From: a virus
DNA length: 64,000 nt
Direction: 5' to 3' (one strand)
IMG/VR virus record: IMGVR_UViG_3300035210_000132
Location: 28,596-92,595 of that record
This document shows positions 13,974 to 63,811 of the stretch, piece by piece (within the stretch, counting starts at the first letter, position 1; each line of letters begins with the position of its first letter). Below the pieces are notes generated by a model. The model saw only the letters and a list, made by a program, of their open reading frames with translations. It searched no databases and was not told the DNA's origin. The position numbers were made by a program, and so were the translations under genes.

Positions 13974-14234
13974 ATGATCTTTAAGCCGATGCCAAAGGAA
14001 GAGATCCTCAAGGCCTTGCGGGGCCATGAGGACATCATTGATAGGGCCGTTAAGGAGCATGAGGCCTTTTTCAAGCGCCTGTCGTGCCCTTCTTGTGGGG
14101 GGGAGGTGATGCCTGTTGTAAATCCCAAGAGGCTCTTCCGAGAGAGCTCAGTGCTTCCCAGCTACCTAGGCAAGTGCCGGTCCTGCGGCGTAGAGTTCGA
14201 GCCGTACACAGGCATCCAAGTCACGCTTCGCTAA
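13974..14234 (+). CDS. Small Cys4 zinc-ribbon protein (86 aa), encoded antisense inside the minus-strand structural operon, in the gap between the tail-fibre and baseplate-J-like genes.
   Basis: 'CPSCGG...(22 aa)...CRSCG'. This is the only plus-strand ORF in the 44-kb block and it occupies a true intergenic gap (13922..14230). Confidence 0.5.
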   Translation: MIFKPMPKEEILKALRGHEDIIDRAVKEHEAFFKRLSCPSCGGEVMPVVNPKRLFRESSVLPSYLGKCRSCGVEFEPYTGIQVTLR

Positions 14235-19219: not shown

Positions 19220-19870
19220 CTACAAAGTCATCTCAGCTACAGCTTGTTGCCCTGAGACAGCAGCCAGGGCGACGCGACACGAAAGGGTGGTAGTAGAGGC
19301 ATCAAAACCTATAGACTCTACCGAAGCCGACAGCAACCTTTCGCTGTTAGGTATGTTGGTCTTAGCAGCCTGGCGACTCATGATCTGGTCTCGGGCTCGG
19401 TTGACCGACGCCATGGCCGAGGCCTGGATGAGCTTTTGGTTGGTGTTAGAGACCGAGCTTCCTACGAGACGCAGTAGGCCGCCACCTTCCTTGGGATGGA
19501 AACGGTCGGATCCAGGGGTCTGTAGTAACATCCTGCAGAAGATCTGGACCAACCTCTCCAGGCCTTTCATCGTTTTGATGCTACCTGACACCTCGAAGTG
19601 CAGGGTGCTTTCCCTACTAACTGACGGCTTATCAGCAGACACTACTACAGAGCGAATAGGAGAAGCGCGCTCCGAGGTAGGAATCTGAGCTAGGAGTAGC
19701 CCAGACGACTCAACGATGAACTCAGGAGCCTCAACATCGTTGATCAGAACTCGGGATGCCTGGTCGAACTGATAGCCCACCACCACAAGACTGGGAGGAG
19801 AGAGGTCCGCATAAGCTACTTTAACAACTTCTAGGAGATCCCGGATCGTTAGGATCTTGATGTCTATCAT
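19220..19870 (-). CDS. Hypothetical baseplate-associated protein (216 aa).
   Basis: Coupled ORF adjacent to the baseplate-J-like gene. Confidence 0.5.
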   Translation of the reverse strand: MIDIKILTIRDLLEVVKVAYADLSPPSLVVVGYQFDQASRVLINDVEAPEFIVESSGLLLAQIPTSERASPIRSVVVSADKPSVSRESTLHFEVSGSIKTMKGLERLVQIFCRMLLQTPGSDRFHPKEGGGLLRLVGSSVSNTNQKLIQASAMASVNRARDQIMSRQAAKTNIPNSERLLSASVESIGFDASTTTLSCRVALAAVSGQQAVAEMTL

Positions 19871-20211
19871 GATACCTTTTCCGTAGCTTCGTTTTCCTTG
19901 TCGGAGGCCTCTGCCATGGCCTTGGCCTTGTCGTAAACCTTACTGAAGTTCTCCTTCAGAGTGTTCAAGGCATCGAGCTGAGAAGGCCGGGTATCCGTAC
20001 CACTGCCAGACGCAGATAGTAAGGCACGGGGTTCCTTGATGCGGCGTTTGGCTTCATCTATGTAGTGGTCGAAGGTGAAGTTGTTGATGGCCGTGTTGAT
20101 TTCACGACTACGAACCGCTACGTAGACATCGGCTATGGTTGCCCTGAGGTCATCCGCTTCTTTGGTCTCCTGCGGCACGGCCTTCGCATCATCGGGGGTC
20201 TCAGCAGCCAT
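19867..20211 (-). CDS. Hypothetical protein (114 aa), acidic.
   Basis: ATGA-type overlap with the downstream gene. Confidence 0.5.
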   Translation of the reverse strand: MAAETPDDAKAVPQETKEADDLRATIADVYVAVRSREINTAINNFTFDHYIDEAKRRIKEPRALLSASGSGTDTRPSQLDALNTLKENFSKVYDKAKAMAEASDKENEATEKVS

Positions 20212-29925: not shown

Positions 29926-30375
29926 CTACTCGTCTGCGACCACGTAGAGATCCGATGCCACGCCCGTAGAGACATTCCAGACGACTATACTTGACGCGAC
30001 GTTGAGGGTATTCCCCTGCGGAGGGATCACAAGCCCTCTTGGGAAGGTCCAGACTACTCCAACGCCAACGATGTTGGTGCTGTTCCATCTCCGCATGTAG
30101 ACGAGCGGCGCTGTGGGACTGGTGTTCCATGCCAACGCCACCTGCAAGACCGACTGTGGATCGTTCGGGTCATCTGGGGAAAACACCGTCTGGGACGAAG
30201 GGGTGACTCCGATCGCCTGAGGCCGAGCCAGAGCAACTGACTGCACCGTTGCAGCGGCCTGAATGTAAGAGACCTCGAGAAGCTTCGGCCGAACGCCCGT
30301 AGGTGCACGAATCTCTGCTGAGGCCTGCCCAGAGGTGGTGTTGGTCGTCCGGACGCTAACGCTGGAGGTTGCCAT
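29926..30375 (-). CDS. Small beta-rich structural protein (149 aa), tandem paralog of 30388..30816. Candidate tail tube protein given that it follows the 650-aa gene.
   Basis: Aligns end to end with its neighbour (M..S..LRT.N.T...A.E.R.G.R.K.LEVS.IQ ... IGVTP ... TW.TSPTAP ... RRWNS ... VGVG.VWTFPRG). SD GAGAGG. Confidence 0.45.
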   Translation of the reverse strand: MATSSVSVRTTNTTSGQASAEIRAPTGVRPKLLEVSYIQAAATVQSVALARPQAIGVTPSSQTVFSPDDPNDPQSVLQVALAWNTSPTAPLVYMRRWNSTNIVGVGVVWTFPRGLVIPPQGNTLNVASSIVVWNVSTGVASDLYVVADE

Positions 30376-30387
30376 GAGGAACCTCTC

Positions 30388-30816
30388 TTACTCGTCGCAA
30401 GCGAAGTTCACATCGAGCGCGACCGATGCTGTGATGTTGAAGATGACCACACTCGAGCTCACCGCCATGACGAAGCCTCTGGGGAAAGTCCAGACCATGC
30501 CGACACCGACGGTGGCTGCGCTGTTCCAGCGTCTCGGGTAAGGGTTCGGCGCGGTAGGACTGGTACCCCAAGTGAGCGCCGCTGTCAAAGTTGACGTGGC
30601 CTCGGCTGGGTCATCCATGACCGGGACTGAAGTCGTACCTGGAGTCACCCCGATCACTGCCGGCTTCCCAAAACCGAAGGAAGACGCTGTACCGGTGACC
30701 TGGATGAGCGAGACCTCGAGCACCTTGACGCGCAGACCGGCGCCCGTGCGCAGCTCACAGGCCGCGTTATTGATGGTGACGTTGCTGGTCCGCAGACCAA
30801 TTGAGCTGATAGGCAC
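30388..30816 (-). CDS. Small beta-rich structural protein (142 aa, GTG start), tandem paralog of 29926..30375. Candidate tail tube protein.
   Basis: Paralogy read directly. SD AGGAG 8 nt upstream of the GTG. Confidence 0.45.
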   Translation of the reverse strand: MPISSIGLRTSNVTINNAACELRTGAGLRVKVLEVSLIQVTGTASSFGFGKPAVIGVTPGTTSVPVMDDPAEATSTLTAALTWGTSPTAPNPYPRRWNSAATVGVGMVWTFPRGFVMAVSSSVVIFNITASVALDVNFACDE

Positions 30817-30847: not shown

Positions 30848-32800
30848 CTACCCCTCAACTGTAGTTGGGTAGCTGTTATCGGTTCTACCGACATGGGTCG
30901 AGTCCTGCCACATCTCCCAGTACAACAACTCCGTGTCGTTGTAAACGATGGTGCTGAAGATGCCCCCGACACCGGTAGTGACTTTGTAGAGCAATTCGCC
31001 ATCGGAGGCGCGATGAAGGCAGGCAGTCATGCCGGAACCATCGCCGGCGAAGTTCACCGCGTTGCCTCCCGTGGCCCAGGTCTGGGAGTGGTAGGTGCAG
31101 TAGATCGCGTACCCAGCGCAGCAGGTGGTCTTCACCGAGACTCTGTGGTACCGAGCCACTTGGGGGTCGAGAAGGCCTTGAGCCAGCGACGCGGAGTTCG
31201 GGCTGTCGTAGTAGACTCCAACAGCCGGCGTTCTCCTTCTGATGGTCGGGTACTGGTAGCCGTTCCCCACGTTCAGAGGCCCGATGACCCTCCAACCTTC
31301 ACCAGGAGATCCCGGGTCAGTCGACAAGATCTCGGCTAGGGCCACAAAGGTGAGGCCGTTGGTGGTGTCGCACTGAGGCATGGAGAAGTACGCGAGATCA
31401 GCAGCCACGAAACGGTAGTAGGTCTCGGGGATGAAGAAGGTGTTTTGAATCCCCTTCGACTCGACGGCGTCATTACCAGAAGAGGCGTTGCAGAAGTAGA
31501 TCGTGTGGTTGTGCGTGTCAGCTCCCAGAGTGGCCTTGTCGCTCGTGTAGTTCAGGTACAGAACCGCATCCAAGCCGTAGATCGACTGACCCGCCTGCCC
31601 TCTTCTGGCGTTGAACGTGATGCTGTTCGACCCTCGAGCCAGAGAAACTCCTGCTCCTAGAGCTGCTGCACTGTCTACTCTGATGATGCAGTCGAAGCCT
31701 CCCGCACATAGGCTGGCATAACCAGAGTAGGTTCTCTCGCTCTGCGCCCCACAGGAGACGATGAGATCGTTGGCCGTGGCGTACGCCGAGTAGCTGTGGA
31801 CCTTCACGCCACTCTGAAGCAGGGTGATGGTTCCTGGCTCGACAACGTCGAAAGAGAAGACCGAACGGTGCTTGTCTGTGGCTGTGTTGCCGTCCAGAAG
31901 ATCAGGTGCGTTGGCGATGCACATCTGAAGTGAGTTCAAGATGCGCGTGCTGTTCGTGTGGTTGTACTCGTAGATGACGACAAGCACGACCGAGATCCAG
32001 CTCGGTCGGATGCCGTTGGTGCTGGTCGTCCTGAACTTGATCGCATGAGTGGCCGACGTACTCATATCGTCGCGCACCCAGTGCTGGACGCAGTACCGTC
32101 CCGTAGACCCGCTCAAGGTCAGGTTGTGGGTACCATCGTTGACCTCAGACTCGGAGTCGAGCTGCATCCCGAGCTGGGAGTTGGTGGTACTGCCCGGCGT
32201 CTCGTTGTAAGTGATCTCGAAGTATTTCTGCCGGTAGACGACGCTGTTCTCGGGCAAGAAGGTGCTCAGGTTGGGCACCTGGCTGGTTCCGAGCTCCGCA
32301 AGAGAGCTCGACAAAGAACCCGTGTTGGCCGAGTCCAGGGGGATTTTGGCCATCTTGATACGGGTCGTCTGCGCGCTATCGTTGTACTGGTAGGTGATGA
32401 TCAGCTTCGCCGTGGTGTTGATGCGAGAGAAGCCGGTGATGGCCACCCCTACCTGGCACGTCTGTGACGTCCCAGAACCGAAGTTGGCATTGAAGTAAGC
32501 GGTGAAGTCGCGTACCAGAACGAACTCGCGCTCGTTGGTCGTGGACCGGCATGTTGGAGTACGGGTGATGTCAGAGAAGCCAGCCGCTGCCAGATTCACT
32601 CCGATGGTCCAGGAGGTCAGGGTGACAGCAGTGTTCGAGTTGTCGAGGAAGGTGACTTCGACTACCACTGAGACGAAGTTCCGGCTGGCGTTCTCTGGGA
32701 TGTAGACGGTGAGGGCAGACCAGTCGTACCGAACCGTAGACGCCCTAGCGGTCGTGTCGGTCGGGAATGCGTACTCCAAGGTTTTGGTTCTTAGAGCCAC
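30848..32800 (-). CDS. Major structural protein (650 aa), Asn/Ser/Thr/Tyr-rich beta protein with a very strong SD. Candidate tail sheath (layout: large protein followed by two tube-size paralogs) or major capsid protein.
   Basis: The SD TGGAGGGAG immediately upstream of a GTG start implies high expression. A 63-nt intergenic region precedes it. No sheath signature motif was confirmed. Confidence 0.4.
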   Translation of the reverse strand: MALRTKTLEYAFPTDTTARASTVRYDWSALTVYIPENASRNFVSVVVEVTFLDNSNTAVTLTSWTIGVNLAAAGFSDITRTPTCRSTTNEREFVLVRDFTAYFNANFGSGTSQTCQVGVAITGFSRINTTAKLIITYQYNDSAQTTRIKMAKIPLDSANTGSLSSSLAELGTSQVPNLSTFLPENSVVYRQKYFEITYNETPGSTTNSQLGMQLDSESEVNDGTHNLTLSGSTGRYCVQHWVRDDMSTSATHAIKFRTTSTNGIRPSWISVVLVVIYEYNHTNSTRILNSLQMCIANAPDLLDGNTATDKHRSVFSFDVVEPGTITLLQSGVKVHSYSAYATANDLIVSCGAQSERTYSGYASLCAGGFDCIIRVDSAAALGAGVSLARGSNSITFNARRGQAGQSIYGLDAVLYLNYTSDKATLGADTHNHTIYFCNASSGNDAVESKGIQNTFFIPETYYRFVAADLAYFSMPQCDTTNGLTFVALAEILSTDPGSPGEGWRVIGPLNVGNGYQYPTIRRRTPAVGVYYDSPNSASLAQGLLDPQVARYHRVSVKTTCCAGYAIYCTYHSQTWATGGNAVNFAGDGSGMTACLHRASDGELLYKVTTGVGGIFSTIVYNDTELLYWEMWQDSTHVGRTDNSYPTTVEG

Positions 32801-36862: not shown

Positions 36863-39800
36863 TTAACCCTCGAGACCTACGCCAAGACTACCGGTGGCAG
36901 CATGAAGTTGGCCGACGTAGTCACGTACCTTCTCCAGTCTTCCTGGTCTGGGATCTAGATCTCGGTGGATGATGGCTTTCTTTCCATGACCCTTGCGAAA
37001 CCGTGGGATCTTGAGATCTGGATTGGTCAGCAACCCCCGGAGCTGCCCGCCCGCATCGTAGACGGCCGCAGAGTGAAAGCCTGGGGTACCTGACACCAGA
37101 GCAATAGCATCTCCGGCATTGATGTACTCTAGATCAGCAGAACCGAGGATCTCTTCTAGAGTAGCTATGGGTCTTCTAGTGTAGTCCTGGATAAAGCGGT
37201 TGACGTCGAGACCCTTGCGCTTCACTTCTCCGTAGATGTACGCCAGCTCGTCTACAGCCGACTCAATGTCAGGTACATCAGCAATGCTATCGGCTAGAGC
37301 AGAATCCATGATCTTCTTGATCTCGTTCTCGTCCCCTGTACACGCTCTGATGTCGGCGAGAAGCTTCTTCTGCTTCTCTCTGGAGGTACCAAAACTCGCC
37401 AGGCCGTCGTTGGGAGTTACGTAGAGCGCCTGATCTACGATAGAACCGCAACCGAAGAACTTCTCGTAGATCTCTTTGCCGATGAACCAATTCGAGTAGA
37501 GGTTGCTGAACCAGGGAGGACGTAGACCCTCCTCGATGGGAATGGTCTTGCTGCTGCGCTTCCGGTAGGTGGCCTTCTCGTAGATCGTGGCCTTCCTCCA
37601 GTAGTAGATGACATCTGCCTTCGCTACCGGAGCTCCGTTGATCAGAAGCTTACCTGTACCTGGGTCGGTCTGAAACTCTTTGACCAACACAGCGTCCGAG
37701 GTCTTGACTTTCTTGTTCTTGGGAGGAGTTACTCCCTTGGTCGCAAGATTCTTGCCTACCAGGGCCACTGCCTGAGCGGTCAGCGTGACGGGGTCTCCGG
37801 CACAAGCAACCTGTACTATCTTTCCGCCCAAAGGTCCCTTAGAACCTGGACCTAGCTTGCCTCCAGGAGAAGGAATCAAGATCTGGGTCTCTCCCTTTGG
37901 CGCGTTACCTTTGATGACGTGCCCCCTAATAGAAAGATAGCTGTCTGAAGTTACGGGAACGGTCTCTGGCGTCTTAGTAGCCGAGCGCAGGTCGTTCAGC
38001 CCGGCGAAGCTGTCTACTACTTTGGGTAGGCTCGCGGGACGGCTCTCTAGCGGGATCTGCTCTTGTCCTGCCGCCCCCTCGTCCTCTTGATCTTGACGTT
38101 GAGCAAGAGACACAGCTACCTGGGCCAGATTTTGAGGCGTGATGTCACGAAGGAAGTTCAGCATCTTCCAGTTGCCTTCGGCGATCAACTTTTCTGCGTC
38201 TAGCTCTGTGGGCACAATCTCGGTGATGGGGGTGTTGGTGATCTCTGAAGAGATGGTATCCAAGAAGTCATCGTCAGTAATGCGATGCGTACGAGCATGC
38301 GTCATGGTGATGGAGGTGTGGCCACCCTCTTGGCTCACCGAATGGGACATGCCTGCGATCATGCCTATGTACTGAGTAGGCGCATTGAACTTACGAGCAG
38401 CCGTACGAACGAACTCAGACATGTCGTCTTTGAAGTTCTCCGGGACTGCCTGCAGCACCTCGTCGCGCCGCTCTGGGGTCAGGATGAAAGGCTTGTCCAA
38501 GATCACAGTGGGGAAGCCGCATACCAGCCAGGGAGTGAACTTGGCTGAGATCTCACAAGACCGGGCAGAGAAGCGATACCTCAGGTAGTTGAAATTGGCC
38601 GTCCTTTGAGCGTACTCAGATGCAGGTCCTGAGATCTGGGTGTTCTTATTGTTCTTGTTGATCTTCTCGACGATGTAGTTGACCTCATGCATCGTCTCGA
38701 ACTTCGGCAGGATGCCTGAGTAGATCTCCCAAGGAAGCAAGACACGGATGGAGCTGTTGCCCTGCTTCTTCGCCATCTCCATGAGCTGCGTAGTAGTGGG
38801 GGCAAAATGGTAAACGTCTAGTAGTCCGTAAGTCCCTTGATTGATACCAAAGGTCAGATCCGTAGATAGACGGAGCCTGGTGCACTCCTGGAGAAAGCTC
38901 CGCGAGAATTGGAACTGGGTGTACTGATCCGGGAACAGGACGTTGCATCTTGGCGCTGCAGCGAAGAAGCAGTCGGGGCGAAAGATCTGGGTCCCTAGCA
39001 TAGGGAGTTCCCCTTCTACGTACACATCCTTTTGCCCTGTGACTTTGCCGTCTCCCTGCAAAGCCTTCATGAGAAAGTCGTAGACCTTGGCCCAAACTTT
39101 ACGGTTACTGGAAAAAACTGGGGGGTCTTGGGGCACAGGCTCTTTGAAGAACACCTTGCTGCCTTTGTTATCCTCAAAGAATACTTTGTTGCCCTTGGTC
39201 TTACTACCACTCTTGCTGGCTGGAGTGCTGTTCTGGCGAATAAGGTTAGGCGCCAGCGAGCCCATAACAATGAGGTTGGCTTTATTCAGCTCAGCTGCCG
39301 TGGGAGAGAACTGTACATCTCTAAGGTCTTTAACCTCTCCTTTTGCGAGCTCCAAAAAATCGGCAGTTTTAGCAGGAATAGAAGTTTTCTTTGGAGGCGC
39401 CGGGACACTAGCAGCAGCTTGATTGAATAGCTGTTCTGGTGCAGAAGGCTGATACCCTGTAGTAGCATTGGTGATCAGCTGTTCAGCCGCCAAGTACTTT
39501 ATGTTCTGCTGCAGCTGCTCGATCCTACTATTTTTTGTCATAGCCAAGATAGCTTCTATTTCATCAGCTACTTGGATACCTAGGACCGTTTCTTTCCTTT
39601 CTTGGCCATCCGCTTTATATTTCCAATCCCTGTAAGTGGCAACTTTGACTGCAAGTGCACGGATCTTGTCCGACAGCTCGTCAGATAGGCCAGAACCCGA
39701 ATAGGTGTTCATTTTCTTGGTCGTACTGTCCTTGGACTTGGTGTACATCGCACAAGGATTAGGGACGACCTCGTAGTAGACATAGGTGAAGAGCAGCTTT

Positions 39801-40642
39801 ATCATGTCCCGGAAGGTCACCAGAGAGCCCATGCTGGACATGCCTCGCGTGAGCCAGTCCATGAAGGTCTTCTCTTCGAAAAGCCGGGTAGCTGTATCAT
39901 CATTCTCTTCTGCTACGATCTGCTGCAGGATGTGGTTCTTGAGCTCAGCAATCGTGAAGAAGTCGTTGACGCCACTGGTGTGGTTGGCGACCCCTCCCAT
40001 GGCCTCGAGGAGAGAGATGATACCTCCCATCAAGCCCTTGATCTTGGTTAGTCCTGGGGTCTGAGGAGCGGATCGCAGGTATTCGTCCATGACCGACGTA
40101 TGCCCTGAGGTCAGGTCGTCGAACATGTTATCGGCTCCGGCCCAGACCGCTGCCGAGGTACCAAGAAAGCCACTGCCTGAGTACGAGACGAAGAACTGGT
40201 AAGTGGTGTCCCAGTAGGTCGAGAAGTCAGAGCACTGCAGGACAGCCTGGCGACCCACCGGGCTCTTCGCCATCATGATGCCGATGATCTCACCGCAAAA
40301 GAAGAGCTTGTAGCCCCGGAGATCTAGGTCAAAACGATCCCCTGAGACGTCTTGGGAGCTTATCAGGTCTTTAGCAGCGTCGACTTCAATGTGATAGAGA
40401 GACGCCAACACTTGCGGATCAGTCGTCGTCGAAGGCGTACCTGCGACATCCAGGGTATAGTCCCAGAAGAAGAGATGGACCATGGTACGAGGCTTGAGAC
40501 TCAAGATCCCATCAGTGGGCACGACTTGGATGGAAGCCGTAGCGGGAGCGTTGATGCCCATCTGTACTTGGGCTGAAATGACGGGGACCTCGATGCCCTC
40601 GAGGAAAAGCCTAAGCCCTAGCCTCTGTCCTGTCATCGTCAT
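36863..40642 (-). CDS. Very large virion protein (1259 aa), mixed alpha/beta. No motif recognised; possibly a portal or other multi-domain structural protein.
   Basis: Long ORF. Its start overlaps the stop of the 407-aa gene by 1 nt. Confidence 0.55.
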   Translation of the reverse strand: MTMTGQRLGLRLFLEGIEVPVISAQVQMGINAPATASIQVVPTDGILSLKPRTMVHLFFWDYTLDVAGTPSTTTDPQVLASLYHIEVDAAKDLISSQDVSGDRFDLDLRGYKLFFCGEIIGIMMAKSPVGRQAVLQCSDFSTYWDTTYQFFVSYSGSGFLGTSAAVWAGADNMFDDLTSGHTSVMDEYLRSAPQTPGLTKIKGLMGGIISLLEAMGGVANHTSGVNDFFTIAELKNHILQQIVAEENDDTATRLFEEKTFMDWLTRGMSSMGSLVTFRDMIKLLFTYVYYEVVPNPCAMYTKSKDSTTKKMNTYSGSGLSDELSDKIRALAVKVATYRDWKYKADGQERKETVLGIQVADEIEAILAMTKNSRIEQLQQNIKYLAAEQLITNATTGYQPSAPEQLFNQAAASVPAPPKKTSIPAKTADFLELAKGEVKDLRDVQFSPTAAELNKANLIVMGSLAPNLIRQNSTPASKSGSKTKGNKVFFEDNKGSKVFFKEPVPQDPPVFSSNRKVWAKVYDFLMKALQGDGKVTGQKDVYVEGELPMLGTQIFRPDCFFAAAPRCNVLFPDQYTQFQFSRSFLQECTRLRLSTDLTFGINQGTYGLLDVYHFAPTTTQLMEMAKKQGNSSIRVLLPWEIYSGILPKFETMHEVNYIVEKINKNNKNTQISGPASEYAQRTANFNYLRYRFSARSCEISAKFTPWLVCGFPTVILDKPFILTPERRDEVLQAVPENFKDDMSEFVRTAARKFNAPTQYIGMIAGMSHSVSQEGGHTSITMTHARTHRITDDDFLDTISSEITNTPITEIVPTELDAEKLIAEGNWKMLNFLRDITPQNLAQVAVSLAQRQDQEDEGAAGQEQIPLESRPASLPKVVDSFAGLNDLRSATKTPETVPVTSDSYLSIRGHVIKGNAPKGETQILIPSPGGKLGPGSKGPLGGKIVQVACAGDPVTLTAQAVALVGKNLATKGVTPPKNKKVKTSDAVLVKEFQTDPGTGKLLINGAPVAKADVIYYWRKATIYEKATYRKRSSKTIPIEEGLRPPWFSNLYSNWFIGKEIYEKFFGCGSIVDQALYVTPNDGLASFGTSREKQKKLLADIRACTGDENEIKKIMDSALADSIADVPDIESAVDELAYIYGEVKRKGLDVNRFIQDYTRRPIATLEEILGSADLEYINAGDAIALVSGTPGFHSAAVYDAGGQLRGLLTNPDLKIPRFRKGHGKKAIIHRDLDPRPGRLEKVRDYVGQLHAATGSLGVGLEG

Positions 40643-42266: not shown

Positions 42267-45200
42267 CTACGAGATGGTCTTTAGCTTCTCAAAGACAATA
42301 TTTAGGGCACTCGAAGCTGTGATGGCTTGCGCGTTGAGCTGGTTGAACAAGGACTTGACCGACTCTTCACTGACCCCGGCTGCCCCTGCTTTGGAGCCGG
42401 GGGTACTGAGGTGGCTGTGAACACCTTTATCTTTTATTAGCTTACTAATGTTGGCCATCTCGTCTGCATCGATCCGATTGTCCTTGTTGACATCCAGAGC
42501 TTGCCCTTCTTTGTAGAGGTCAGACCCAGCCAACCCTAGAGAGTCACCAACCGCCTCATCGAACGAGAGGGTTCTCTTCTTACCTCTCCGGTCGGTACCC
42601 TTCAACGTCTTACTGACCCCCTTCAACCTGACATTTTCCTCACCCAAGCGCAGAACATCAGGGGCAATATCTTTGTAGGCCGACATGGTTGCCCCTCTAC
42701 TCCTCTCATCCATCTCAGCGTAAGCTTCTCCTGCGGCTTGCAGAGCAAGACGAGAGTCTGAGAGGTTGGAGAGGGTAGCGGACTTGTATGTCTTGCCCAT
42801 CTGAGATAGGGCCTCTGAGAAAGCGGCACTCTTACCCTTAGTGGTTTTGGATAGGTTGGTGGCTACGTTAGAGCCTGTACCACCTGAAGCGAGTTCCGCG
42901 CCATGCCCCTGCAGCTTACTGATATTTTCTTTAGTCGCCGTAGCAGCGGTGAACTGAAGATAACCCTGCATAGCCTCTCGTACTTCTTTGGTCATGCCGG
43001 GTATAGCCGAGTGCAGTTTATTCCTCAGTCCTGACTTATCTTCATTGAATTTTTTGATATCCTCATCAGTCATCCCGTTCTTTTTTAGGAAGTCTACTTG
43101 AGCTTGGTTGAACTCTCCTCTTTGACTGAGGATGCTCTCGAAGATATCCGAAGATGCTGGGTCAAGGCTCTTCTCAATAGCCCTTCCTATTCCCGTATCC
43201 TCGTTGATTAGATCCTTGATCTGAGCCCAGGAAGCCGCCCCTTTTTCTCCTTTTAGGCTATGCCCTAACTGGGTATCAAGAGCCTTCGTAGACCTGGCTA
43301 GTTCCTGCCAGTCGTAGGAGGCCAAGGATCCAGAGTAACTTTTGCTTAGCTCCTTGGCTCCTGGCATGTAGCGGTTATTCTCAGGAGCCAAGGCTGTAAG
43401 AACTTCTATGGCTTTGCTTGGATCTCCTCCAGTGGCCTTTTCCCATAAGGCTTTCGTGGGAGACCCGAAAACGTTAGCAGCGGTCTGCACAAGACTACCC
43501 TCACTGCTACCACTAAGCCTATCCACCAGGTATTTGGCCTGACCTTCAGGGGATAGATTTTTTAGATCTTCGTCAAAAGAAGCCTCGTAGAGGCGCTTTT
43601 TAAGATCAGCAACTCCCTCGGGTCCTACCGAAGCTTCTAGTCTGGAGGCCAAGCTCTTCTTATTGGCGTCCAGAGAATTTAGGTAGCTAACCTGATCTGC
43701 TACATCTTGTTCGGTTACTACTACTTTGTAGTCGCCGTGCCCAGATAGCATCCCTGCACCCACGCCTATCCCTATGCCCAAACCAACAGGATTTCCTGTC
43801 GCGAAACCCGCTGCGACGGCGAAGGCGGCGTTAGCGCGTCGATCCCACTTACCTCTATCCTCTAGCATGGCTACATTTTCGTCGGTCATGGCCATGGGTC
43901 CGGAGTAGCCCTCGGCAGTCAAACTCATAAACCTACCACCAAACAGGGCTTTTCGTTCGTCAAGAGAGCGTTGATTTGGATCAACTACTCCGATGCCCTT
44001 CAGTATGTCGGTGTCTAAGCCATATTTCGAGGAGTCATAAATGGTGGTGGCGTCAGTATGGGTACGCTTACCGACAGCACTCAAGTAACTCAGTGCAGAG
44101 GCGTCGCCACGAGAAGCGTCGTTAAATAGACGAGACCCTCGCTTTGTGACCTCGACTTTATAAGACCCAGTCATGGTGTCGACAAAGTCTTCGGCCCAGT
44201 CACCGATATAATCTCTGACTGCAACTCCCAAGTCCTTGGCGAAATCGACTCCGGTGATATGACTGAGTTTGGTCGAGATCTTTTTCTTGACCGCTTCCCA
44301 GGAGTTCTCTCCTAGAGCTTGGTTACGGGCTGCCTGTTCTGCCGCCATGCGACGCTGGGAAGAGAGTTCTAGGCCCACAGTCTTGAGGTTCGGCATGACC
44401 TGCTGCAGCAGGGTGGCTTCTTCTTCCGTAGCTCCGAACCGCTGCATGACCAGGTTCATGGCATCTTCGTTGTGCCATCCACGCTCTCCCAGAAGATGCT
44501 GCAACTGGGAGGCGATCATTTCTGGTCCTGCTTCCCCTACCATGTTGGCTGTAAGCCGGGCTCGCTTGGCTACAAAAGAGAGTTTGGCCTCGCGGGTGTT
44601 GGCCTTCTGATGGGCTATTTGTAGGAGCTCTCCCTTGCTGAGCCCCCCAGAGCGAAATCTTTCCAGTAGCTCCTGGTCCATAGCCCCCGTGTAGCGGCCA
44701 TCTACCACCTCGCCCATCGCCAAGGTCATCGCTGTGCCGACCCCAGAGCGAGCCATCTTATAGCCCAGGTTGTTCAGGCTCACGGCCATGTCCTGCAGGC
44801 CTTCCGCGCCCTCCTTACCTGTCATCTCCACAATCTGAGAGTTGGAGAGTATCCCTAGCTGATTGGCCATACCCAACTGGTTGGCCGTCCGGGTAATAGC
44901 ACGCGCTCCAATCTGACGGCTACCTCCACGAGAATGACTAACCTCGCCCCCAAACTGCTGAAGGCGACTGACCTGCTCTTGGGTCATGCCCGTAACACTA
45001 GCCGTAACCTGCTTCAGTATCTGGTTGCCTCGGATCTCCTGATCGGTATAGAAGCCCGAGAGACGTGATTCAGAAAAGGACTGCAGGGCTCCTTCCATGG
45101 TCGTGCCCATCATCTTCGCCATGTCGCGAAGTGTGGTGACCATCTTCTGGAACTTGCCTGTGAAGTCTCCTACCGTCTTGAGGCCTTGCATGAGCCCCAT

Positions 45201-45821
45201 CTGACCCATCTTGTCCATGAGCTGATTCAGCTCACCGAATGAGGTCAGCATCTCGGGCATGCGTTCCATGTGGCGCACCATGTTACCGATGGCGGCCGTG
45301 TCCATGCGCGAGAAGCCTTGGCCTTGAAATCCAGAGGGATTCTGAAAACGGAACTGGCCTAAGGTCCTCTCGAGCTGGGATTGCTCCTGGGCCCCCTCCA
45401 TCATGTTGCCGAAGATGTGGCTTCCTATGGCCCCAACTCCCATACCAAGGACACCGCCTGCCACTGCGCTGCGTACGACTCCGGCGGTACCCATGCCCAA
45501 GCCGTGGGCTGCAAGACCGGCACTCATGCCGAAGCTGATCCCTTGGGTCATCGGGCTGAAGACAGCCTGACCGATACCTCCTACAACTGACGTACCCAGG
45601 TTGGCGAGACCTCTGAGGTCTCGAGCCGCTCCGTAGTTGAAGCCTGGTCCCGGACCTGCTCCGTAAGCGGATCCTCCCTGAAGAGGTGACCCCATGAAGC
45701 CAGGACCCGACTGCCCTCCGTAAGCCCCGGGCATCTGAGCAGACAGGGGAGGAGCCATGGGAGTAGAAAGCATCTGCCCCTGCTGGGCATGCATTGCGGA
45801 GATCTGCCAGGAAGATAACAA
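42267..45821 (-). CDS. 1184-aa Gly/Met/Gln-rich, mostly alpha-helical protein with glycine-zipper hydrophobic segments. Resembles a tape-measure or ejection (internal virion) protein. First gene of the minus-strand structural operon (TTG start; the first ATG is 9 codons in).
   Basis: Segments such as 'GISFGMSAGLAAHGLGMGTAGVV...GGVLGMGVGAIG' and 'AFAVAAGFATGNPVGLGIGIGVGAGMLSG' are typical of membrane-inserting segments in tape-measure-like proteins. GGAG lies 9 nt upstream of the TTG, and an in-frame TAG just upstream fixes the 5' limit. Confidence 0.5.
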   Translation of the reverse strand: MLSSWQISAMHAQQGQMLSTPMAPPLSAQMPGAYGGQSGPGFMGSPLQGGSAYGAGPGPGFNYGAARDLRGLANLGTSVVGGIGQAVFSPMTQGISFGMSAGLAAHGLGMGTAGVVRSAVAGGVLGMGVGAIGSHIFGNMMEGAQEQSQLERTLGQFRFQNPSGFQGQGFSRMDTAAIGNMVRHMERMPEMLTSFGELNQLMDKMGQMGLMQGLKTVGDFTGKFQKMVTTLRDMAKMMGTTMEGALQSFSESRLSGFYTDQEIRGNQILKQVTASVTGMTQEQVSRLQQFGGEVSHSRGGSRQIGARAITRTANQLGMANQLGILSNSQIVEMTGKEGAEGLQDMAVSLNNLGYKMARSGVGTAMTLAMGEVVDGRYTGAMDQELLERFRSGGLSKGELLQIAHQKANTREAKLSFVAKRARLTANMVGEAGPEMIASQLQHLLGERGWHNEDAMNLVMQRFGATEEEATLLQQVMPNLKTVGLELSSQRRMAAEQAARNQALGENSWEAVKKKISTKLSHITGVDFAKDLGVAVRDYIGDWAEDFVDTMTGSYKVEVTKRGSRLFNDASRGDASALSYLSAVGKRTHTDATTIYDSSKYGLDTDILKGIGVVDPNQRSLDERKALFGGRFMSLTAEGYSGPMAMTDENVAMLEDRGKWDRRANAAFAVAAGFATGNPVGLGIGIGVGAGMLSGHGDYKVVVTEQDVADQVSYLNSLDANKKSLASRLEASVGPEGVADLKKRLYEASFDEDLKNLSPEGQAKYLVDRLSGSSEGSLVQTAANVFGSPTKALWEKATGGDPSKAIEVLTALAPENNRYMPGAKELSKSYSGSLASYDWQELARSTKALDTQLGHSLKGEKGAASWAQIKDLINEDTGIGRAIEKSLDPASSDIFESILSQRGEFNQAQVDFLKKNGMTDEDIKKFNEDKSGLRNKLHSAIPGMTKEVREAMQGYLQFTAATATKENISKLQGHGAELASGGTGSNVATNLSKTTKGKSAAFSEALSQMGKTYKSATLSNLSDSRLALQAAGEAYAEMDERSRGATMSAYKDIAPDVLRLGEENVRLKGVSKTLKGTDRRGKKRTLSFDEAVGDSLGLAGSDLYKEGQALDVNKDNRIDADEMANISKLIKDKGVHSHLSTPGSKAGAAGVSEESVKSLFNQLNAQAITASSALNIVFEKLKTIS

Positions 45822-51707: not shown

Positions 51708-52028
51708 TTACTCCTCTTTCACGAGACTAAGAGCACGTTTTACCGTATCAAGATTGGGGACCTTGCCCTCATGGACCAGCCTCTCGAGTTCGGAGATCTC
51801 CAGGATCTTCTTCTCAATCAACTGGGTTGAGAGCTCGAGGGCTCCGATGCATGCCCAGGTACCCGACCAGCGCTCCAAGCCAGCCGCCCGTGAAGGGCTC
51901 TCCTCAGAGCTCTCGAGTAGCCGCTTGCGGATGAGATCATACGCTGACATGAACGCCAGAAGATCCTTGCGAAGCTCTCGCCTCTCTTCCACCAGAGTAC
52001 TCAAGCTGTATCCTACTAGCTCCGCCAT
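51708..52028 (-). CDS. Small helical protein (106 aa).
   Basis: ORF. Confidence 0.45.
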   Translation of the reverse strand: MAELVGYSLSTLVEERRELRKDLLAFMSAYDLIRKRLLESSEESPSRAAGLERWSGTWACIGALELSTQLIEKKILEISELERLVHEGKVPNLDTVKRALSLVKEE

Positions 52029-52327
52029 TTCTCCAGAACCTCAGCAGGAGCGTGAAAACCCAAGACGAAGTCGCCGTAGGAGATCTTGGCCCTGAACCCT
52101 TGACTGCTACTCAAGGAGATTTCGTACTGCACTCCTCCTGGCCTTGCTTGGTTGCTAACTTCCTGGGCAGGTTGACTGTAGTCGACCACCTTGATGGAGG
52201 GCGACCAGCCCGGATGCTGATCCGCGTAGCAGTAGTGACAGAGGAGCTTCTTCGTGTCGAAGTCGAACTCGGTCTGCTCCTTGAGCAGGTCGCGACGACC
52301 ACATTGAGGATTTTCACACCACGCCAT
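52016..52327 (-). CDS. Small zinc-binding protein (103 aa).
   Basis: 'CENPQCG...(21)...CHYC'. Preferred over the overlapping 52111..52362 ORF. Confidence 0.45.
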   Translation of the reverse strand: MAWCENPQCGRRDLLKEQTEFDFDTKKLLCHYCYADQHPGWSPSIKVVDYSQPAQEVSNQARPGGVQYEISLSSSQGFRAKISYGDFVLGFHAPAEVLEKWRS

Positions 52328-52799: not shown

Positions 52800-53320
52800 G
52801 GAATCACCGCCTTAAGGGAAAACTGCAGCTCACCCTCATCGTCAGAGCCGCACAACACGAAAACGTCTTCTTCGATGGCGGTGTCAACCTGCACCGGTAC
52901 CCCAAAGAACGCTAGGTTGGTGATGGGGATCTGGACGCGAAGCCACTGTTGGAACAAGAACCGATTGCCGAGGAGCAGGTGACTCAGGCTCAAGCCTTCG
53001 TTGTGGATGATCTGACTCATCTCCCACAAATGAGCAAAAGCTGGGCGAGACCGTGACTCCTCCTCGATCACGTACTCTGTCATCGGCTTGGCCTTGATCT
53101 GGTCGTAGACCGAGACGGTGGCCTGGTCCGGAGCTTTATCCTTGGGCACCATCTTCTCAAAGAGGATGGGCTTGCCTATCTCCAGGGTCAGCTTCTGAGT
53201 ATAGGGGTTCTCCTTGAGAACGGCCCTGATGGCCGTGACAATGTCATCTACCCCCTTACCCAGAAAGGGAATACTGTCCTTGACCCGAACCCACCCGGGT
53301 TTATCAGAATTGCGGGACAC
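52796..53320 (-). CDS. Hypothetical protein (174 aa).
   Basis: ORF with ATGA-type overlap. Confidence 0.5.
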   Translation of the reverse strand: MSRNSDKPGWVRVKDSIPFLGKGVDDIVTAIRAVLKENPYTQKLTLEIGKPILFEKMVPKDKAPDQATVSVYDQIKAKPMTEYVIEEESRSRPAFAHLWEMSQIIHNEGLSLSHLLLGNRFLFQQWLRVQIPITNLAFFGVPVQVDTAIEEDVFVLCGSDDEGELQFSLKAVIP

Positions 53321-53486
53321 TGCCAGCCTCGACGTTCTTCTTCAGCTCCGTGAAGTAGTCCACGATGAGCTGGGTGACGTTGGTATTATGCTCGTGCGCG
53401 TACCGCTTGGCCCAATAACTCAGGTCCATAGGAAGCCGTATGTTCAGACGGATCTTCTCCGCCTTCCTCTTGTTTGGCCGAGCCAT
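53304..53486 (-). CDS. Ribbon-helix-helix (Arc/CopG-like) DNA-binding protein (60 aa).
   Basis: 'IRLNIRLPMDLSYWAKRYAHEHNTNVTQLIVDYF' shows the canonical RHH strand plus helix pattern. Confidence 0.55.
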   Translation of the reverse strand: MARPNKRKAEKIRLNIRLPMDLSYWAKRYAHEHNTNVTQLIVDYFTELKKNVEAGSVPQF

Positions 53487-53495
53487 CAGGTGGTC

Positions 53496-53843
53496 CTAAG
53501 AAAACGCCCCCAGCTGCACATCTTCTTCGATGACGGCCATGACATCCTCAGCACGAATCATGAAGACGGGGTTATCTCCCTCTGCATCGAAGCCTTGTAC
53601 TGCATCCTTGAGAAAGCCGCGGTAGCAAACACGCATCCCTGGTTCGAGGTCGTAGCCGATCTTGCCCCGAATCTCGTCCCGGTCGCCTACCCGTAGAAGA
53701 TGCCCAGTACCTTCCATGACCCTCTCGATGCCCGTGATGGCCTCGGTCAAGTAGATCCCTCCCTTGGTCTTCTTGACGCGAGGGTCGCCTTTGACGATCA
53801 GCCACAGGTGCAGCGGTCTAGTGTCTTTCCAACGCAGGCCCAT
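53496..53843 (-). CDS. groES: GroES-like co-chaperonin (Hsp10 family; functional analogue of T4 gp31), 115 aa.
   Basis: Aligns with E. coli GroES at 'RPLH..LIVK', 'KTKGGIYLT', 'LRVGDR' and the C-terminal 'PVFMIRAEDVMAVIEE'. Confidence 0.7.
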   Translation of the reverse strand: MGLRWKDTRPLHLWLIVKGDPRVKKTKGGIYLTEAITGIERVMEGTGHLLRVGDRDEIRGKIGYDLEPGMRVCYRGFLKDAVQGFDAEGDNPVFMIRAEDVMAVIEEDVQLGAFS

Positions 53844-54125
53844 CTAGACCTCCGAAACCGCGTCCACCGACAGCTTCAGGGCAGCCATGATGTCGCGCTT
53901 GGCCCAGGCTTGAGCAGGGCGTAGGCTAACCGCGTTCTCGTTCAGGTAGTAGATCTCTCCTCCTGGGATGACCAGGACGATCTTGATCATCTCTTTGCCG
54001 AAACCGTCCCGCATCTTGACGATGGCCGTCTTGATCTCCTTGATGCCCAACACCCTAGCGCCCGATAGATCTTCCTCTGGCAGAGGAGTTGCTCCCGTCT
54101 TCTGGTACTGATCCTGTGTCGCCAT
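53844..54125 (-). CDS. Hypothetical protein (93 aa). The start is set at the ATG at 54123-54125, which has a perfect SD AAGGAG 7 nt upstream.
   Basis: SD read directly. Overlaps the 3' end of the next gene by ~70 nt in a different frame. Confidence 0.5.
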   Translation of the reverse strand: MATQDQYQKTGATPLPEEDLSGARVLGIKEIKTAIVKMRDGFGKEMIKIVLVIPGGEIYYLNENAVSLRPAQAWAKRDIMAALKLSVDAVSEV

Positions 54126-54411
54126 AACCAATCTCCTTCTTGGGGGTCAATGCTGGGGCGAAGGCACTCAGGTCCATCGGAGCCAGCTTTCCTGTGGAGC
54201 AGCCGCACTTCCGTGCGACTACCTTCTTGATGACGTCTACTTGGTAACTGACCGGCTGCGTGCATACGGGACAGATGTGCTTCTGATCCCCTAAGGGGGT
54301 CAGAGTAAATTGGGGGCCAGGCGCCACCAGCTGGGTGAGTAGCTCCAGCACCAAATCAAGCTTGTGCTCAAGGCGCATCTGGGCTTCGGACAGGGCATCA
54401 TCTGCTGCCAT
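54055..54411 (-). CDS. Small zinc-finger protein (118 aa). This is the C-terminal part of the 219-aa track ORF, starting at 'MAADD'.
   Basis: The ATG at 54409-54411 lies 2 nt after the upstream TAG, preceded by the SD GAGGT. 'CPVC...(14)...CGC'. Confidence 0.45.
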   Translation of the reverse strand: MAADDALSEAQMRLEHKLDLVLELLTQLVAPGPQFTLTPLGDQKHICPVCTQPVSYQVDVIKKVVARKCGCSTGKLAPMDLSAFAPALTPKKEIGYGDTGSVPEDGSNSSARGRSIGR

Positions 54412-54413
54412 AA

Positions 54414-54848
54414 CTACCTCGCCTCGGTTACTTTGAACACGGTCGCCCCCAAGGTAGAGGACGCAAAGTGGATGACCTTGGTACCAAGGGTCAAAGATAT
54501 GATCAGAGACCGCTGAGGGTCGGATGACGCTTTCAGGTCGACCTCGGTGATGGTGGATCCAAGCAGGAGCTTGCGTAGATCCTTCGGACCGCAACGCTTC
54601 TCGTTGGGGAGCCCAGCGCCGAACGATGCCTGGAAGAGCTGCAAAGCACTGATGTGCTGCGACCCCTTCACCTTGATGTTGCCGGCGGCGTAGATCTTGA
54701 CCTTGCCCCCGCAAGCTTCATGATTCGGACAACGCATGCTCTTCTTCAGCAGGTGAGCATTCGGGTCAGAGTCAGGAACCACAAAGGCTGCTGAGCAGCC
54801 CTTGCAGATGTAGATGCGAACAGGCGAGGCCACCGATCCGCGGTTCAT
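54414..54848 (-). CDS. Zinc-finger protein (144 aa).
   Basis: 'CKGC...(22)...CPNHEACGG'. Confidence 0.5.
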   Translation of the reverse strand: MNRGSVASPVRIYICKGCSAAFVVPDSDPNAHLLKKSMRCPNHEACGGKVKIYAAGNIKVKGSQHISALQLFQASFGAGLPNEKRCGPKDLRKLLLGSTITEVDLKASSDPQRSLIISLTLGTKVIHFASSTLGATVFKVTEAR

Positions 54849-58315: not shown

Positions 58316-59110
58316 ATGCCTCTGCATCAGGAGATCAACGGCAAGCTCCGCAACATGTATGGCTGGCGTAGAGATCTCCCCGATCACCGGGACGAGAACT
58401 ACAAGGTCATCTTCGACCGCAAGGTTATGCCCAGGATGCTTGATCTATCGGCTAACTGCCCCAGGACCGAGGATCAAGGTGGCTTGGGCAGCTGTACCGC
58501 CAACGCCGCGACTTCAGCCATGGAGTTCCTCTACAAGAAGGTAGGCAAGTCCCAGCCCGAGCTCTCTCGCCGATTCCTGTACTTCGCTACCCGAGTCTGG
58601 ATCGCCCACGGTCTCCCTGGGGATGATAGTGGGGCCCAGATCCGTGATGTCATGAAGGCTCTGGCCAAGTACGGAGTCTGCCTGGAGACCACCTGGCCCT
58701 ACGATATCGATCAGTTTTCAGTCTCTCCTTCGCAACAAGCGCGGGAAGATGCCCTGACGCACCAGATCACCAAGTACTCCCGCCTGCCCAACGTCTCGAC
58801 CATCCGGGCTTGCATGGCCCAGGGCTATCCGGCAGTAGGAGGATTCTCGGTCCCTGCCAGCATGATGGATGAGGAGACCAGCAAGACGGGGATCGTCAAG
58901 CTACCAGGAAAGAACGAAGAGTTCATCGGAGGACATTGTGTGTTCTTCGTCGGCTACGACGACTACAAGCAACTCCTCAAGTTCCAGAATTCTTGGGGAG
59001 AGAGCTGGGGAGACGACGGCTTCGGCTACCTGCCCTATGACTATGTCACCAACTGGCTTGCCAGTGACTTCTGGTCTATCCAGGACGAGGAATTCGCAGC
59101 CGCTGCCTAG
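58316..59110 (+). CDS. Papain-like cysteine peptidase, MEROPS C1 family type (264 aa).
   Basis: Catalytic-Cys block 'QGGLGSCTANAATSAMEF', His block 'GGHCVFFVGYDD' and the Asn/Trp block 'NSWGESWGDDGFGYLPY' match C1A signatures. Confidence 0.65.
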   Translation: MPLHQEINGKLRNMYGWRRDLPDHRDENYKVIFDRKVMPRMLDLSANCPRTEDQGGLGSCTANAATSAMEFLYKKVGKSQPELSRRFLYFATRVWIAHGLPGDDSGAQIRDVMKALAKYGVCLETTWPYDIDQFSVSPSQQAREDALTHQITKYSRLPNVSTIRACMAQGYPAVGGFSVPASMMDEETSKTGIVKLPGKNEEFIGGHCVFFVGYDDYKQLLKFQNSWGESWGDDGFGYLPYDYVTNWLASDFWSIQDEEFAAAA

Positions 59111-61603: not shown

Positions 61604-63811
61604 ATGGCCAACTTCACAAATCTTGAGAAGCAAACCTACGTTGGTTTCTACTCAGGCATCCCTGACGTCTATAAATCCCTGGCGGTCGTAGCTGTACAAT
61701 CCTCTAAGAAAGACCGCTTTGGTAGGGCCCCCAGTTGCGACCTTCTAGGCCCTACCAACGGAACCACCATCAACAAGACTACTCCATTGGTCTTTCGCAT
61801 CACCGACCCTGATGCTGAGGCCTCTACTGCCAGTGTTGTCCTGACCATCTCGAGAACCCCGAATGCGGAGACTGTAGATATGATCCGAGCCGGCACCAGG
61901 GTCTACTCGGAAGGCGGTACCAAGGCGACGGTCACCGTTACCTTCACCAGATCCGAAAACATCTCTTATCGGTCGGTGCGCTACGCAGCGGGGACACGCT
62001 TCTACAACGCCTTTGCTAGCCGAGCCTACCTGATCAACAAAGAGGTCTATCTGTCCTCGACCTCAGCTGCCGGCTACCCTTCGAGTGTGACCTGTACTGC
62101 CGAGGCATATGGCTACGACCCCTACATCTGGGGAGAGATTCCAGCAGGAGCCAAGATCTTCACCGACCCTGATGGTTCTTCGGATGTGGTAGGCACACAG
62201 ATTGTCTACTACCCTCAAACAGAAGATCAGGGCTGGGTTCAATGGCAACCCAACCATGCCTACTCCCTTGGAGATCAGATCGGGCACAATGGAAACGTCT
62301 ATCTTTGCTACCAGGCGGGTGTTTCTGGAACTCAAGGTCCGTCGGGGCTACTGAACATCGCAGACGGTACCGTGTGGTGGTCCTATCGCTTCGAGGACAC
62401 CAAGAGCCGTATCACCATGGCCATCGCGCATGCCCAGAGCACACCCCCAGCAGGAAAGATCCCAGCTGGCTACCGACTGCAGGCCGGTAGTGGGCAGTAC
62501 TTCCGAGTTATTTCTGATACGGTAGTTGGGGCAGGCGTCACGAGCTACAATGTCGCTTGCCAGGCTGAGGAAGCCGGTATAGACGGGAACGTTCCCGCCA
62601 ACACCATCAGACTCCAGCCCGCCCAAACCCTACCAGCAGGATCGAACTTCGACCCCAACTGGACAGTAGACAACGCTGCCCCTGCTAGCGGGGGTACGGG
62701 AGCCACAGACTCGGTCAGCTTCTACACCAGAGAAGTCGGTGTGCTTCTTCCAGGATCCGATGTCTGTTACGTTTGGGCCGATGCCGAGGTACCAGGAAGT
62801 CTGGGAAATGCTCCGGCGGGATCGTTGACCCAGCTGCGCTTCGAAGGGGTCGCGTATAGCATCGCGGGCCTGACCTGCACCAACACCCTACCCGCCTCAG
62901 GGGGAGAAGACTCGTCAGCTCTAGAGAGAGCTCTTCCTTGTATCAAGTTCAACATCTCTGGTCGAGTAGAGAGCGTTCACGACGGCACGACCTTCATGCC
63001 AGGTTATGCTGACTTGTCTGCCATCGAGTCAGTTCCAGGGGGCTATCTCTACAGTGTAAAAAGAACGGGAGGGTGGACGGACACCTCTATCACACTCTAC
63101 CCCGCTGCCTACGATGTTTCTGGTAATGAGATGGCTCCCATCTCGGTGGGGTCTTGGGCAGTTTCCATCCCTTCTCTGTCTGTCACTCTGGTGTCTCCGA
63201 CCAACGGCGCCGAGCTCCTCACCAACGCAGACCCTCTCGTAGTCGACCTGGTAGGCGACATCGTTACGGGCGAAGTCGTGGTCAACAGCGAGCTCGTGTA
63301 CGCTGCCGGAGCGTTTCAGACAGGCTTCTTGGCAAGCTCGACCAAAGTCGCTGTCACCGACGGCTACCGGTTGTCGATCGTGAGAGACGCTGGCTGGGTG
63401 CTGAACCCGACCATGTCGGTGCTCTTGATCGACACTCGAGGCAACCACCAGACGGCGTACTACACCTGGCTCTGGGGAGCGTCGATCACAGGAACTCCTC
63501 CTGTCATCACCATCATCTCTCCTCCTGCTAATGACCATGGGCGCAGCATCTACGCCAATACCTTCCTGGTCTTCGAGGTCACGGATCCCGATGACAACCT
63601 ACGGGGCTTCTACCCCATCATCTACTATCCAGATGGCAGCGACGCCCTGGTTCATGATGGCACGAGTTTCAGGCCCAACTTCGCGACGTACTCGACTCGG
63701 GATGTGATCACCCACGGCTACCGCTTCCGCATACGGCCAAACGGCGGCTGGGCAAAGTCCCCATCACTCTTCCCTGTGGGCTACGATGAGGTCGGCCTGG
63801 AGATTCCATGA
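61604..63811 (+). CDS. Large beta-rich protein (735 aa) with a CBM5/12-like (chitin-binding type 3) motif. Candidate receptor-binding or glycan-binding tail protein.
   Basis: 'WVQWQPNHAYSLGDQIGHNGNVYLCYQAGVSG' fits the CBM5/12 'W....Y..GD.V..NG..Y.C.Q' pattern. SD GGGAG. Confidence 0.5.
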   Translation: MANFTNLEKQTYVGFYSGIPDVYKSLAVVAVQSSKKDRFGRAPSCDLLGPTNGTTINKTTPLVFRITDPDAEASTASVVLTISRTPNAETVDMIRAGTRVYSEGGTKATVTVTFTRSENISYRSVRYAAGTRFYNAFASRAYLINKEVYLSSTSAAGYPSSVTCTAEAYGYDPYIWGEIPAGAKIFTDPDGSSDVVGTQIVYYPQTEDQGWVQWQPNHAYSLGDQIGHNGNVYLCYQAGVSGTQGPSGLLNIADGTVWWSYRFEDTKSRITMAIAHAQSTPPAGKIPAGYRLQAGSGQYFRVISDTVVGAGVTSYNVACQAEEAGIDGNVPANTIRLQPAQTLPAGSNFDPNWTVDNAAPASGGTGATDSVSFYTREVGVLLPGSDVCYVWADAEVPGSLGNAPAGSLTQLRFEGVAYSIAGLTCTNTLPASGGEDSSALERALPCIKFNISGRVESVHDGTTFMPGYADLSAIESVPGGYLYSVKRTGGWTDTSITLYPAAYDVSGNEMAPISVGSWAVSIPSLSVTLVSPTNGAELLTNADPLVVDLVGDIVTGEVVVNSELVYAAGAFQTGFLASSTKVAVTDGYRLSIVRDAGWVLNPTMSVLLIDTRGNHQTAYYTWLWGASITGTPPVITIISPPANDHGRSIYANTFLVFEVTDPDDNLRGFYPIIYYPDGSDALVHDGTSFRPNFATYSTRDVITHGYRFRIRPNGGWAKSPSLFPVGYDEVGLEIP

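Follow-up and report, generated by a model that had tools for sequence, protein, structure and literature searches.

A divergent Cpn10/GroES-family protein encoded in a clade of large uncultured phages

The minus-strand gene at positions 53496..53843 of the window (the whole 64,000-nucleotide stretch analysed, from IMG/VR record IMGVR_UViG_3300035210_000132) encodes a real but very divergent protein of the Cpn10/GroES family, as judged from sequence profiles and a structure model. The protein is homologous to Cpn10 and is predicted to adopt the same fold, its GroEL-binding loop motif is conserved among its relatives, and the gene lies in a phage context with no neighboring GroEL gene. It is probably a co-chaperonin of a clade of large phages that works with the GroEL of the host. 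Phage GroES genes are already well documented, which makes the basic finding an ordinary one: Marine et al. (2017, PMC5649160) report a small-subunit chaperonin gene for 165/2178 phage genomes and describe GroES-only viral contigs as abundant. The gene is a divergent further example of these.

Gene, sequence homology and predicted fold

The gene and the elements immediately upstream of it are as follows.

53496..53843 (including the stop codon), minus strand: Cpn10/GroES-like CDS, 115 aa (ORF, Pfam, family profile, Foldseek, hhalign)
53849..53853, minus strand: Shine-Dalgarno site GGAGG, spacer to the ATG 5 nt (read from the sequence)
53844..54131, minus strand: 95-aa ORF abutting the GroES-like gene upstream (tblastn homologues in 28 loci, order conserved)

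In the ORF listing of the window, a minus-strand ORF with an ATG start spans 53496..53843 exactly. Its translation (MGLRWKDTRPLHLWLIVKGDPRVKKTKGGIYLTEAITGIERVMEGTGHLLRVGDRDEIRGKIGYDLEPGMRVCYRGFLKDAVQGFDAEGDNPVFMIRAEDVMAVIEEDVQLGAFS; 115 aa, predicted size 12.9 kDa) contains all of the motifs quoted in the earlier note (TRPLHLWLIVK, KTKGGIYLT, and PVFMIRAEDVMAVIEE), and six-frame translation of the window identified it as the sole Cpn10-like ORF. The TAG stop codon of the upstream 95-aa ORF, for which no PHROG match was found, abuts the ATG of the GroES-like gene, suggesting translational coupling. The GC content of the gene is 57%, the same as that of the window; this and the GGAGG site count in favor of a gene that, by its sequence, is real and expressed-looking. 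A promoter and terminator scan near the gene gave a site count no higher than in shuffled sequence.

Taken singly, the 115-aa sequence gives borderline support for Cpn10 membership. Pfam Cpn10 (PF00166) is matched at E=2.4e-4 over profile positions 3-93 of 93, with a score of 21.5 bits that exceeds the gathering score of 21.1 bits by 0.4 bit only. The match to PHROG 3188 ("co-chaperonin GroES") is weak (E=1.6e-4), and phmmer of the single sequence against GroES entries in the PDB reached an E-value of about 0.5 only. The NCBIfam GroES models (NF0015xx), which define the cellular GroES equivalogs, return E=1.9e-5 and a best score of 24.6 bits, far under their cut-offs of 96-133 bits.

Evidence at the level of the family is strong. 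A database search with the protein yielded 168 homologues with identities of 49-74%, and 52 of these were used to build a family alignment. Fifty of the 52 aligned members match Pfam Cpn10 (best E=2.3e-10). The family profile matched chloroplast Cpn20/Cpn23 in the PDB at 5.6e-10 and bacterial GroES at 6.6e-5 to 1e-3, end to end (E. coli GroES ~1e-4). Aligned by hhalign to canonical-length Cpn10 sequences including E. coli GroES, the family gave a probability of 99.65% and E=3.7e-25; the canonical-type alignment drew partly on distant matches of the family profile, so that the two alignments are not fully independent. Because of this family-level evidence, the Cpn10 homology is settled, although the single sequence is borderline.

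The AlphaFold2 model of the protein (pLDDT 78, pTM 0.73) predicts the small β-barrel and flexible mobile loop of GroES. Low-confidence residues are confined to the loop (21-40) and the C-terminal tail, with pLDDT <50 at residues 26-28, 31-33, and 36-40. A Foldseek search of the PDB returned GroES/Cpn10 chains for all of the best 29 matches (probability 0.99-1.00), at modest TM-scores of 0.5-0.67 on target length. T4 gp31 (1g31_A) follows at rank 30 with 9% identity, and GroES-like domains of dehydrogenases rank lower. An alcohol dehydrogenase-type GroES-like domain (PF08240, ADH_N) was considered and rejected: the protein is a stand-alone 115 aa, a weak ADH_N match occurs in only 1/52 members (E=0.0059), and in the Foldseek ranking dehydrogenase structures lie under all Cpn10 matches.

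The resemblance to bacterial GroES/Cpn10 (E. coli GroES, PDB entry 1AON chain O) thus comprises homology over the full length and a predicted β-barrel with a disordered loop, and a Pro close to the N-terminus and the C-terminal strand D-[VI]-L-A-[VI] are likewise conserved. The earlier note had proposed a GroES-like co-chaperonin from the letters alone and had named a missing Cpn10 profile match or a non-GroES predicted fold as findings that would count against it. Neither arose, and its assignment is borne out, as regards Cpn10 homology, by the Pfam match, the family profile, the profile-profile alignment, and the predicted fold.

Mobile loop, roof segment and C-terminal tail

Three segments of the protein bear on its relation to GroES and to known phage co-chaperonins.

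53703..53774, minus strand: predicted mobile loop, residues 24-47 (KKTKGGIYLTEAITGIERVMEGTG; alignments and low pLDDT)
53748..53762, minus strand: GGIYL, residues 28-32, counterpart of the GroES GGIVL GroEL-binding motif (alignments)
53499..53525, minus strand: C-terminal extension EDVQLGAFS, residues 107-115 (family-conserved, absent from canonical GroES)

GGIYL is placed on E. coli GGIVL in three alignments, including that of hhalign. Within the family alignment, Gly28 and Gly29 are invariant and Ile30 and Leu32 are at least 90% conserved, and the mobile-loop check proposed in the earlier note accordingly finds a conserved G-G-I-x-L GroEL-binding motif. The loop glycine and hydrophobic tripeptide that accompany PF00166 membership are therefore recognizable in the sequence, with a middle position that is often Glu or His in the family. 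Among 119 motif-bearing proteins, the tripeptide reads IEL in 59, IHL in 16, IVL in 15, IIL in 9, and IYL in 8; Glu in about half of the family is unlike cellular GroES. Polar residues in the tripeptide are recorded for 23% of viral GroES by Marine et al. (2017, PMC5649160).

In the same three alignments the mobile loop is 4 residues longer than that of E. coli GroES, with the extra length in its distal half. The loop ends in a family-specific ERVMEGTG that is near-invariant (98/123 family proteins), and a further motif, RGFLKDA, follows the central strand as a family feature. The roof segment (residues about 54-66) is kept. By hhalign it lacks 2 residues relative to E. coli GroES (some members lack another 3), and it is predicted to be helical at high pLDDT. 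The family tail comprises 9-10 residues (..D-V-Q-M-G-A-F-S), of which Gly112 is invariant and Met111 at least 90% conserved; canonical GroES sequences stop before it, and its pLDDT is low. Together with an identity of about 20-30%, the lack of an adjacent groEL, and the finding of members only in viral and metagenomic contigs, the longer loop with ERVMEGTG, the shorter, predicted-helical roof segment, and the conserved C-terminal extension set the family apart from bacterial GroES.

Known phage co-chaperonins offer a second comparison. T4 gp31 and RB49 CocO are phage co-chaperonins required for folding of the major capsid protein. Gp31 is 12 kDa in size, with a mobile loop of 22 residues versus 16 in GroES and no roof, and forms a cage that is 8% larger (PMC6318259). 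Like gp31 and CocO, the present protein is phage-encoded and stand-alone, about 12-13 instead of 10 kDa in size, with a GroES-like fold and a lengthened loop (here by the 4-residue insertion), and no phage GroEL was found with it. Unlike both, which lack roof loops, it has a shortened roof segment. Its Cpn10 homology is detectable by sequence, unlike that of gp31 and CocO, and it shows no detectable sequence relationship to the gp31/CocO type (no tblastn match at E<=1 in the phage collection; 9% structural-alignment identity to gp31). Further parallels are the GroES-only virioplankton contigs of Marine et al. (2017, PMC5649160), in which a viral Cpn10 likewise occurs without viral GroEL, identity to cellular GroES is low, and a polar tripeptide residue is frequent; neither the C-terminal extension nor ERVMEGTG is among the features noted in the excerpted text.

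The strong conservation of ERVMEGTG, RGFLKDA, and the C-terminal tail, all missing from canonical GroES, also fits a Cpn10 fold that has been repurposed, for example as a decoy that serves the takeover of the host by blocking or re-tuning its GroEL, or for another partner bound via the MGAFS tail. The frequent polar Glu or His in the middle of the tripeptide, the score far under the NCBIfam GroES cut-offs, and the position of the gene in a block of small ORFs away from recognizable morphogenesis genes would agree with this. Such repurposing is nevertheless improbable, given that the essentials of GroES are kept (N- and C-terminal strands, flexible loop, and a G-G-I-x-L motif in which Ile and Leu are at least 90% conserved), that other viral GroES, too, commonly have a polar residue in the tripeptide (PMC5649160), and that nothing points to another partner. 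A co-chaperonin of the GroES type is the preferred reading.

Distribution and genomic context

The family was found only in viral and metagenomic contigs. The identical protein is also encoded on a 199,134-bp JGI contig and a 99,818-bp Logan contig, and homologues occur on contigs up to about 217 kb, including two IMG/VR contigs, and in 38 metagenome loci. Several contig-name prefixes belong to what we take to be soil, rhizosphere, and sediment projects. An exhaustive search of 1.84 billion representative proteins with the profile returned only 290 matches at E<=1e-3, which grade from family members through 105-145-aa proteins sharing the C-terminal extension to canonical 95-100-aa GroES (~1e-6). 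One of the intermediates, the more distant relative P0140, reaches by tblastn the annotated GroES of the jumbo phages Xanthomonas phage Xoo-sp13 and Erwinia phage Hallingskeid, which with PHROG 3188 belong to the same comparison group as the GroES-only viral contigs. The 115-aa protein itself gave no tblastn match (E<=1) in 50,697 phage records, and a contig scan found no family member among 185,579 species-representative (GTDB) genomes.

Further features of the window place the gene in its surroundings.

53304..53486, minus strand: 60-aa ribbon-helix-helix/Arc-like ORF, directly downstream of the GroES-like gene (phrog_582 Arc-like repressor, E=0.0019; weak DUF6364)
14231-19210, minus strand: Baseplate_J-like protein, 1659 aa (domain search)
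19220-19870: baseplate PHROG match
58316-59110, plus strand: papain-family cysteine protease (Peptidase_C1, E=1.8e-13), adjoining the second baseplate cluster
61604-63811, plus strand: Baseplate_J-like protein, 735 aa, with a CBM_5_12 carbohydrate-binding module, followed by Laminin_G_3 proteins
1754-5464, 6170-10252, 10245-12605, 20211-22457, 24907-28899, 36863-40642, and 42267-45821, minus strand: seven large ORFs, 748-1360 aa

In every long locus, the GroES-like gene is one of about 17 small ORFs that make up the same co-directional block, situated between divergently transcribed peptidase/baseplate genes and a ligase and structural region; an ATP-dependent DNA ligase is also encoded in the window. 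The 60-aa Arc-like ORF is syntenic in 25 related loci, some relatives having an extra gene between it and the GroES-like gene, and is the one neighboring small ORF for which searches of PHROGs and Pfam gave a match. With a median identity of 55%, the GroES-like gene is among the best conserved of its block, in which the medians of other small genes are 30-50%. Constant synteny and high relative identity argue for an old core gene of the clade and not a recent capture, and it is quite likely that the gene has been vertically inherited as a core gene of this clade of uncultured large phages (contigs of roughly 137-217 kb).

The JGI annotation of the gene, "co-chaperonin GroES (HSP10)", would suit an ordinary bacterial groES, either part of host DNA or a recent acquisition of the phage. 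The chance of this is very remote: no groEL lies downstream, identity to cellular GroES is 20-30% with scores far under the NCBIfam cut-offs, the family was not encountered in the scan of GTDB species-representative genomes, the synteny of phage genes is kept across contigs sharing only about 50% identity, and the composition of the gene is the same as that of the surrounding DNA. By divergence, distribution, synteny, and composition, the ordinary bacterial groES is effectively refuted.

That the gene is phage-encoded, as the earlier note had it, is upheld by the baseplate and replication genes and by two IMG/VR contigs carrying family members. The 10-kb flanks of the window (L043 and L044; Logan SRR10968280_5283) encode PolA, RecA, HU, a dNMP kinase, ThyX, and LigD_N, as well as a D12 DNA methyltransferase, an HNH endonuclease, and two PG_binding_1 proteins; the replication genes presumably form a self-sufficient module, of a kind we associate with large phages. 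In the window, genes for terminase, portal, and HK97 capsid proteins were not recognized, so that the designation "phage" rests on the tail, baseplate, and replication genes and on membership in IMG/VR. None of the seven large ORFs has a significant match in Pfam or PHROGs, one showing sub-threshold PKD matches only, and the three of them searched by tblastn (1184, 1259, and 748 aa) gave no match in the 50,697 phage records. As neither the GroES-like protein nor these three ORFs have matches there, no place can be assigned to the clade among known phages. The window resembles a segment of a large tailed phage very remote from described ones.

Several other features of this region may be recorded. 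The two Baseplate_J-like genes are on opposite strands about 45 kb apart, and the pair may indicate two baseplate or fiber modules. The Peptidase_C1 gene is conserved in related contigs (54-56% identity); to our knowledge, papain-family proteases are uncommon in phage genomes. Two conserved small ORFs on the minus strand, 54414-54848 and 52016-52327, belong to the block of the GroES-like gene and contain Cys-x2-Cys pairs (e.g., CKGC...CPNHEAC and CENPQC...CHYC) that suggest zinc ribbons, and have no family match.

GroEL, candidate clients and proposed role

A tblastn search with E. coli GroEL found no GroEL in the window, in loci L001-L004, or in 42 family loci (325 kb). The Cpn60 Pfam model gave no match to the large window ORFs searched, including all nine of at least 650 aa, or to the called genes of the 10-kb flanks. 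No groES-groEL operon was found in the window, its 10-kb flanks, or the 42 family loci, the gene downstream being the 60-aa ribbon-helix-helix ORF. The portion of the genome inspected for GroEL amounts to about 84 kb of roughly 199 kb.

Alternatively, the phage could encode a GroEL-like chaperonin of its own in another part of the roughly 199-kb genome, with the present protein as its partner. Some 115 kb lie beyond the inspected sequence, both chaperonin subunits are encoded by some viruses (PMC5649160), and a divergent loop with a near-invariant ERVMEGTG could reflect co-evolution with a partner other than host GroEL. This is quite unlikely in view of the negative tblastn searches of the window, L001-L004, and 325 kb of family loci, and of the negative Cpn60 searches of large ORFs and flanks. 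Moreover, in the same study, viral GroES and GroEL genes are adjacent where both are reported, and the loop glycine is replaced in viral GroES paired with viral GroEL; here the neighbors are conserved small ORFs with no such match, and the glycine is invariant in the family.

The PG_binding_1 lysin-like proteins and the canonical Shine-Dalgarno site point to a bacterial host. GroEL is present in almost all bacteria. With no GroEL in the searched sequence, the likeliest role of the protein is that of a phage co-chaperonin capping host GroEL, and GroES-only viral contigs of this kind are common (PMC5649160). Co-chaperonin activity of the 115-aa protein is something we infer from homology alone. 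The protein would form a GroES-like heptameric lid, with the flexible loop presenting G-G-I-x-L to the apical domains of host GroEL, and the phage would thereby have its own co-chaperonin during infection, by which phage proteins, as the presumed clients, could be folded. The longer loop, shortened roof, and conserved tail are plausibly adaptations that alter the geometry of the cage or the affinity for GroEL, as in T4 gp31.

The earlier note had taken the gene as a hint of a major capsid protein that is large, possibly a 650-aa protein, or otherwise GroEL-demanding.

30848-32800, minus strand: 650-aa protein (structure model and Foldseek)

This suggestion is not supported. The model of the protein (pLDDT 88.8, pTM 0.91) is compact and all-β, with several jelly-roll-like domains, and a Foldseek search of the PDB and BFVD gave no HK97-fold capsid protein among the matches. 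Those obtained are to local jelly rolls only, at TM <=0.19 and with no global structural match; they include reelin repeats, PNGase F, a single-chain TNF trimer, the STIV triple jelly roll, secovirus coat proteins, and C1q-domain phage proteins. Searches of the PDB by phmmer and by profile found nothing. Homologues of about 640 aa occur on contigs up to 420 kb, some with an extra C-terminal Laminin_G_3 domain, and the 735-kb uncultured phage LR756501 carries a 28%-identical counterpart. With an all-β jelly-roll model and no HK97 match, the 650-aa protein does not qualify as an evident major capsid protein, and it was rejected as such on the combined model, Foldseek, and sequence searches. By its model, a surface protein of some kind, such as a fiber or decoration protein, is more likely than a tailed-phage major capsid protein. 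Directly downstream of its gene lie two tandem minus-strand paralogues, 29926-30375 and 30388-30816 (149 and 142 aa, 47% identical, E=1e-44), both of which end in ..DE.

None of the window's genes was recognized as that of a major capsid protein. A 407-aa ORF considered as a capsid candidate has a partial 28% match to a "structural protein" of Salmonella phage Arash, and gave nothing in searches of the PDB.

With these results, the idea that the co-chaperonin has the 650-aa protein as its capsid substrate is corrected. The GroES-like gene is one of the few in this very divergent, uncultured clade of large phages to which a function can be assigned. It is interesting to speculate that ERVMEGTG, the acidic tripeptide residue, and the MGAFS tail together mark a Cpn10 lineage with a mode of action unlike both GroES and gp31, carried as a core gene by a ~200-kb soil/sediment phage clade with almost no similarity to known phages. 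Such a lineage is doubtful; if real, it might involve, for instance, an interaction with host GroEL that is re-tuned or serves to hijack it, or a specific phage client recruited via the tail. The subfamily defined by its longer loop and conserved C-terminal tail could show how phages re-tune the GroEL cage of their hosts.
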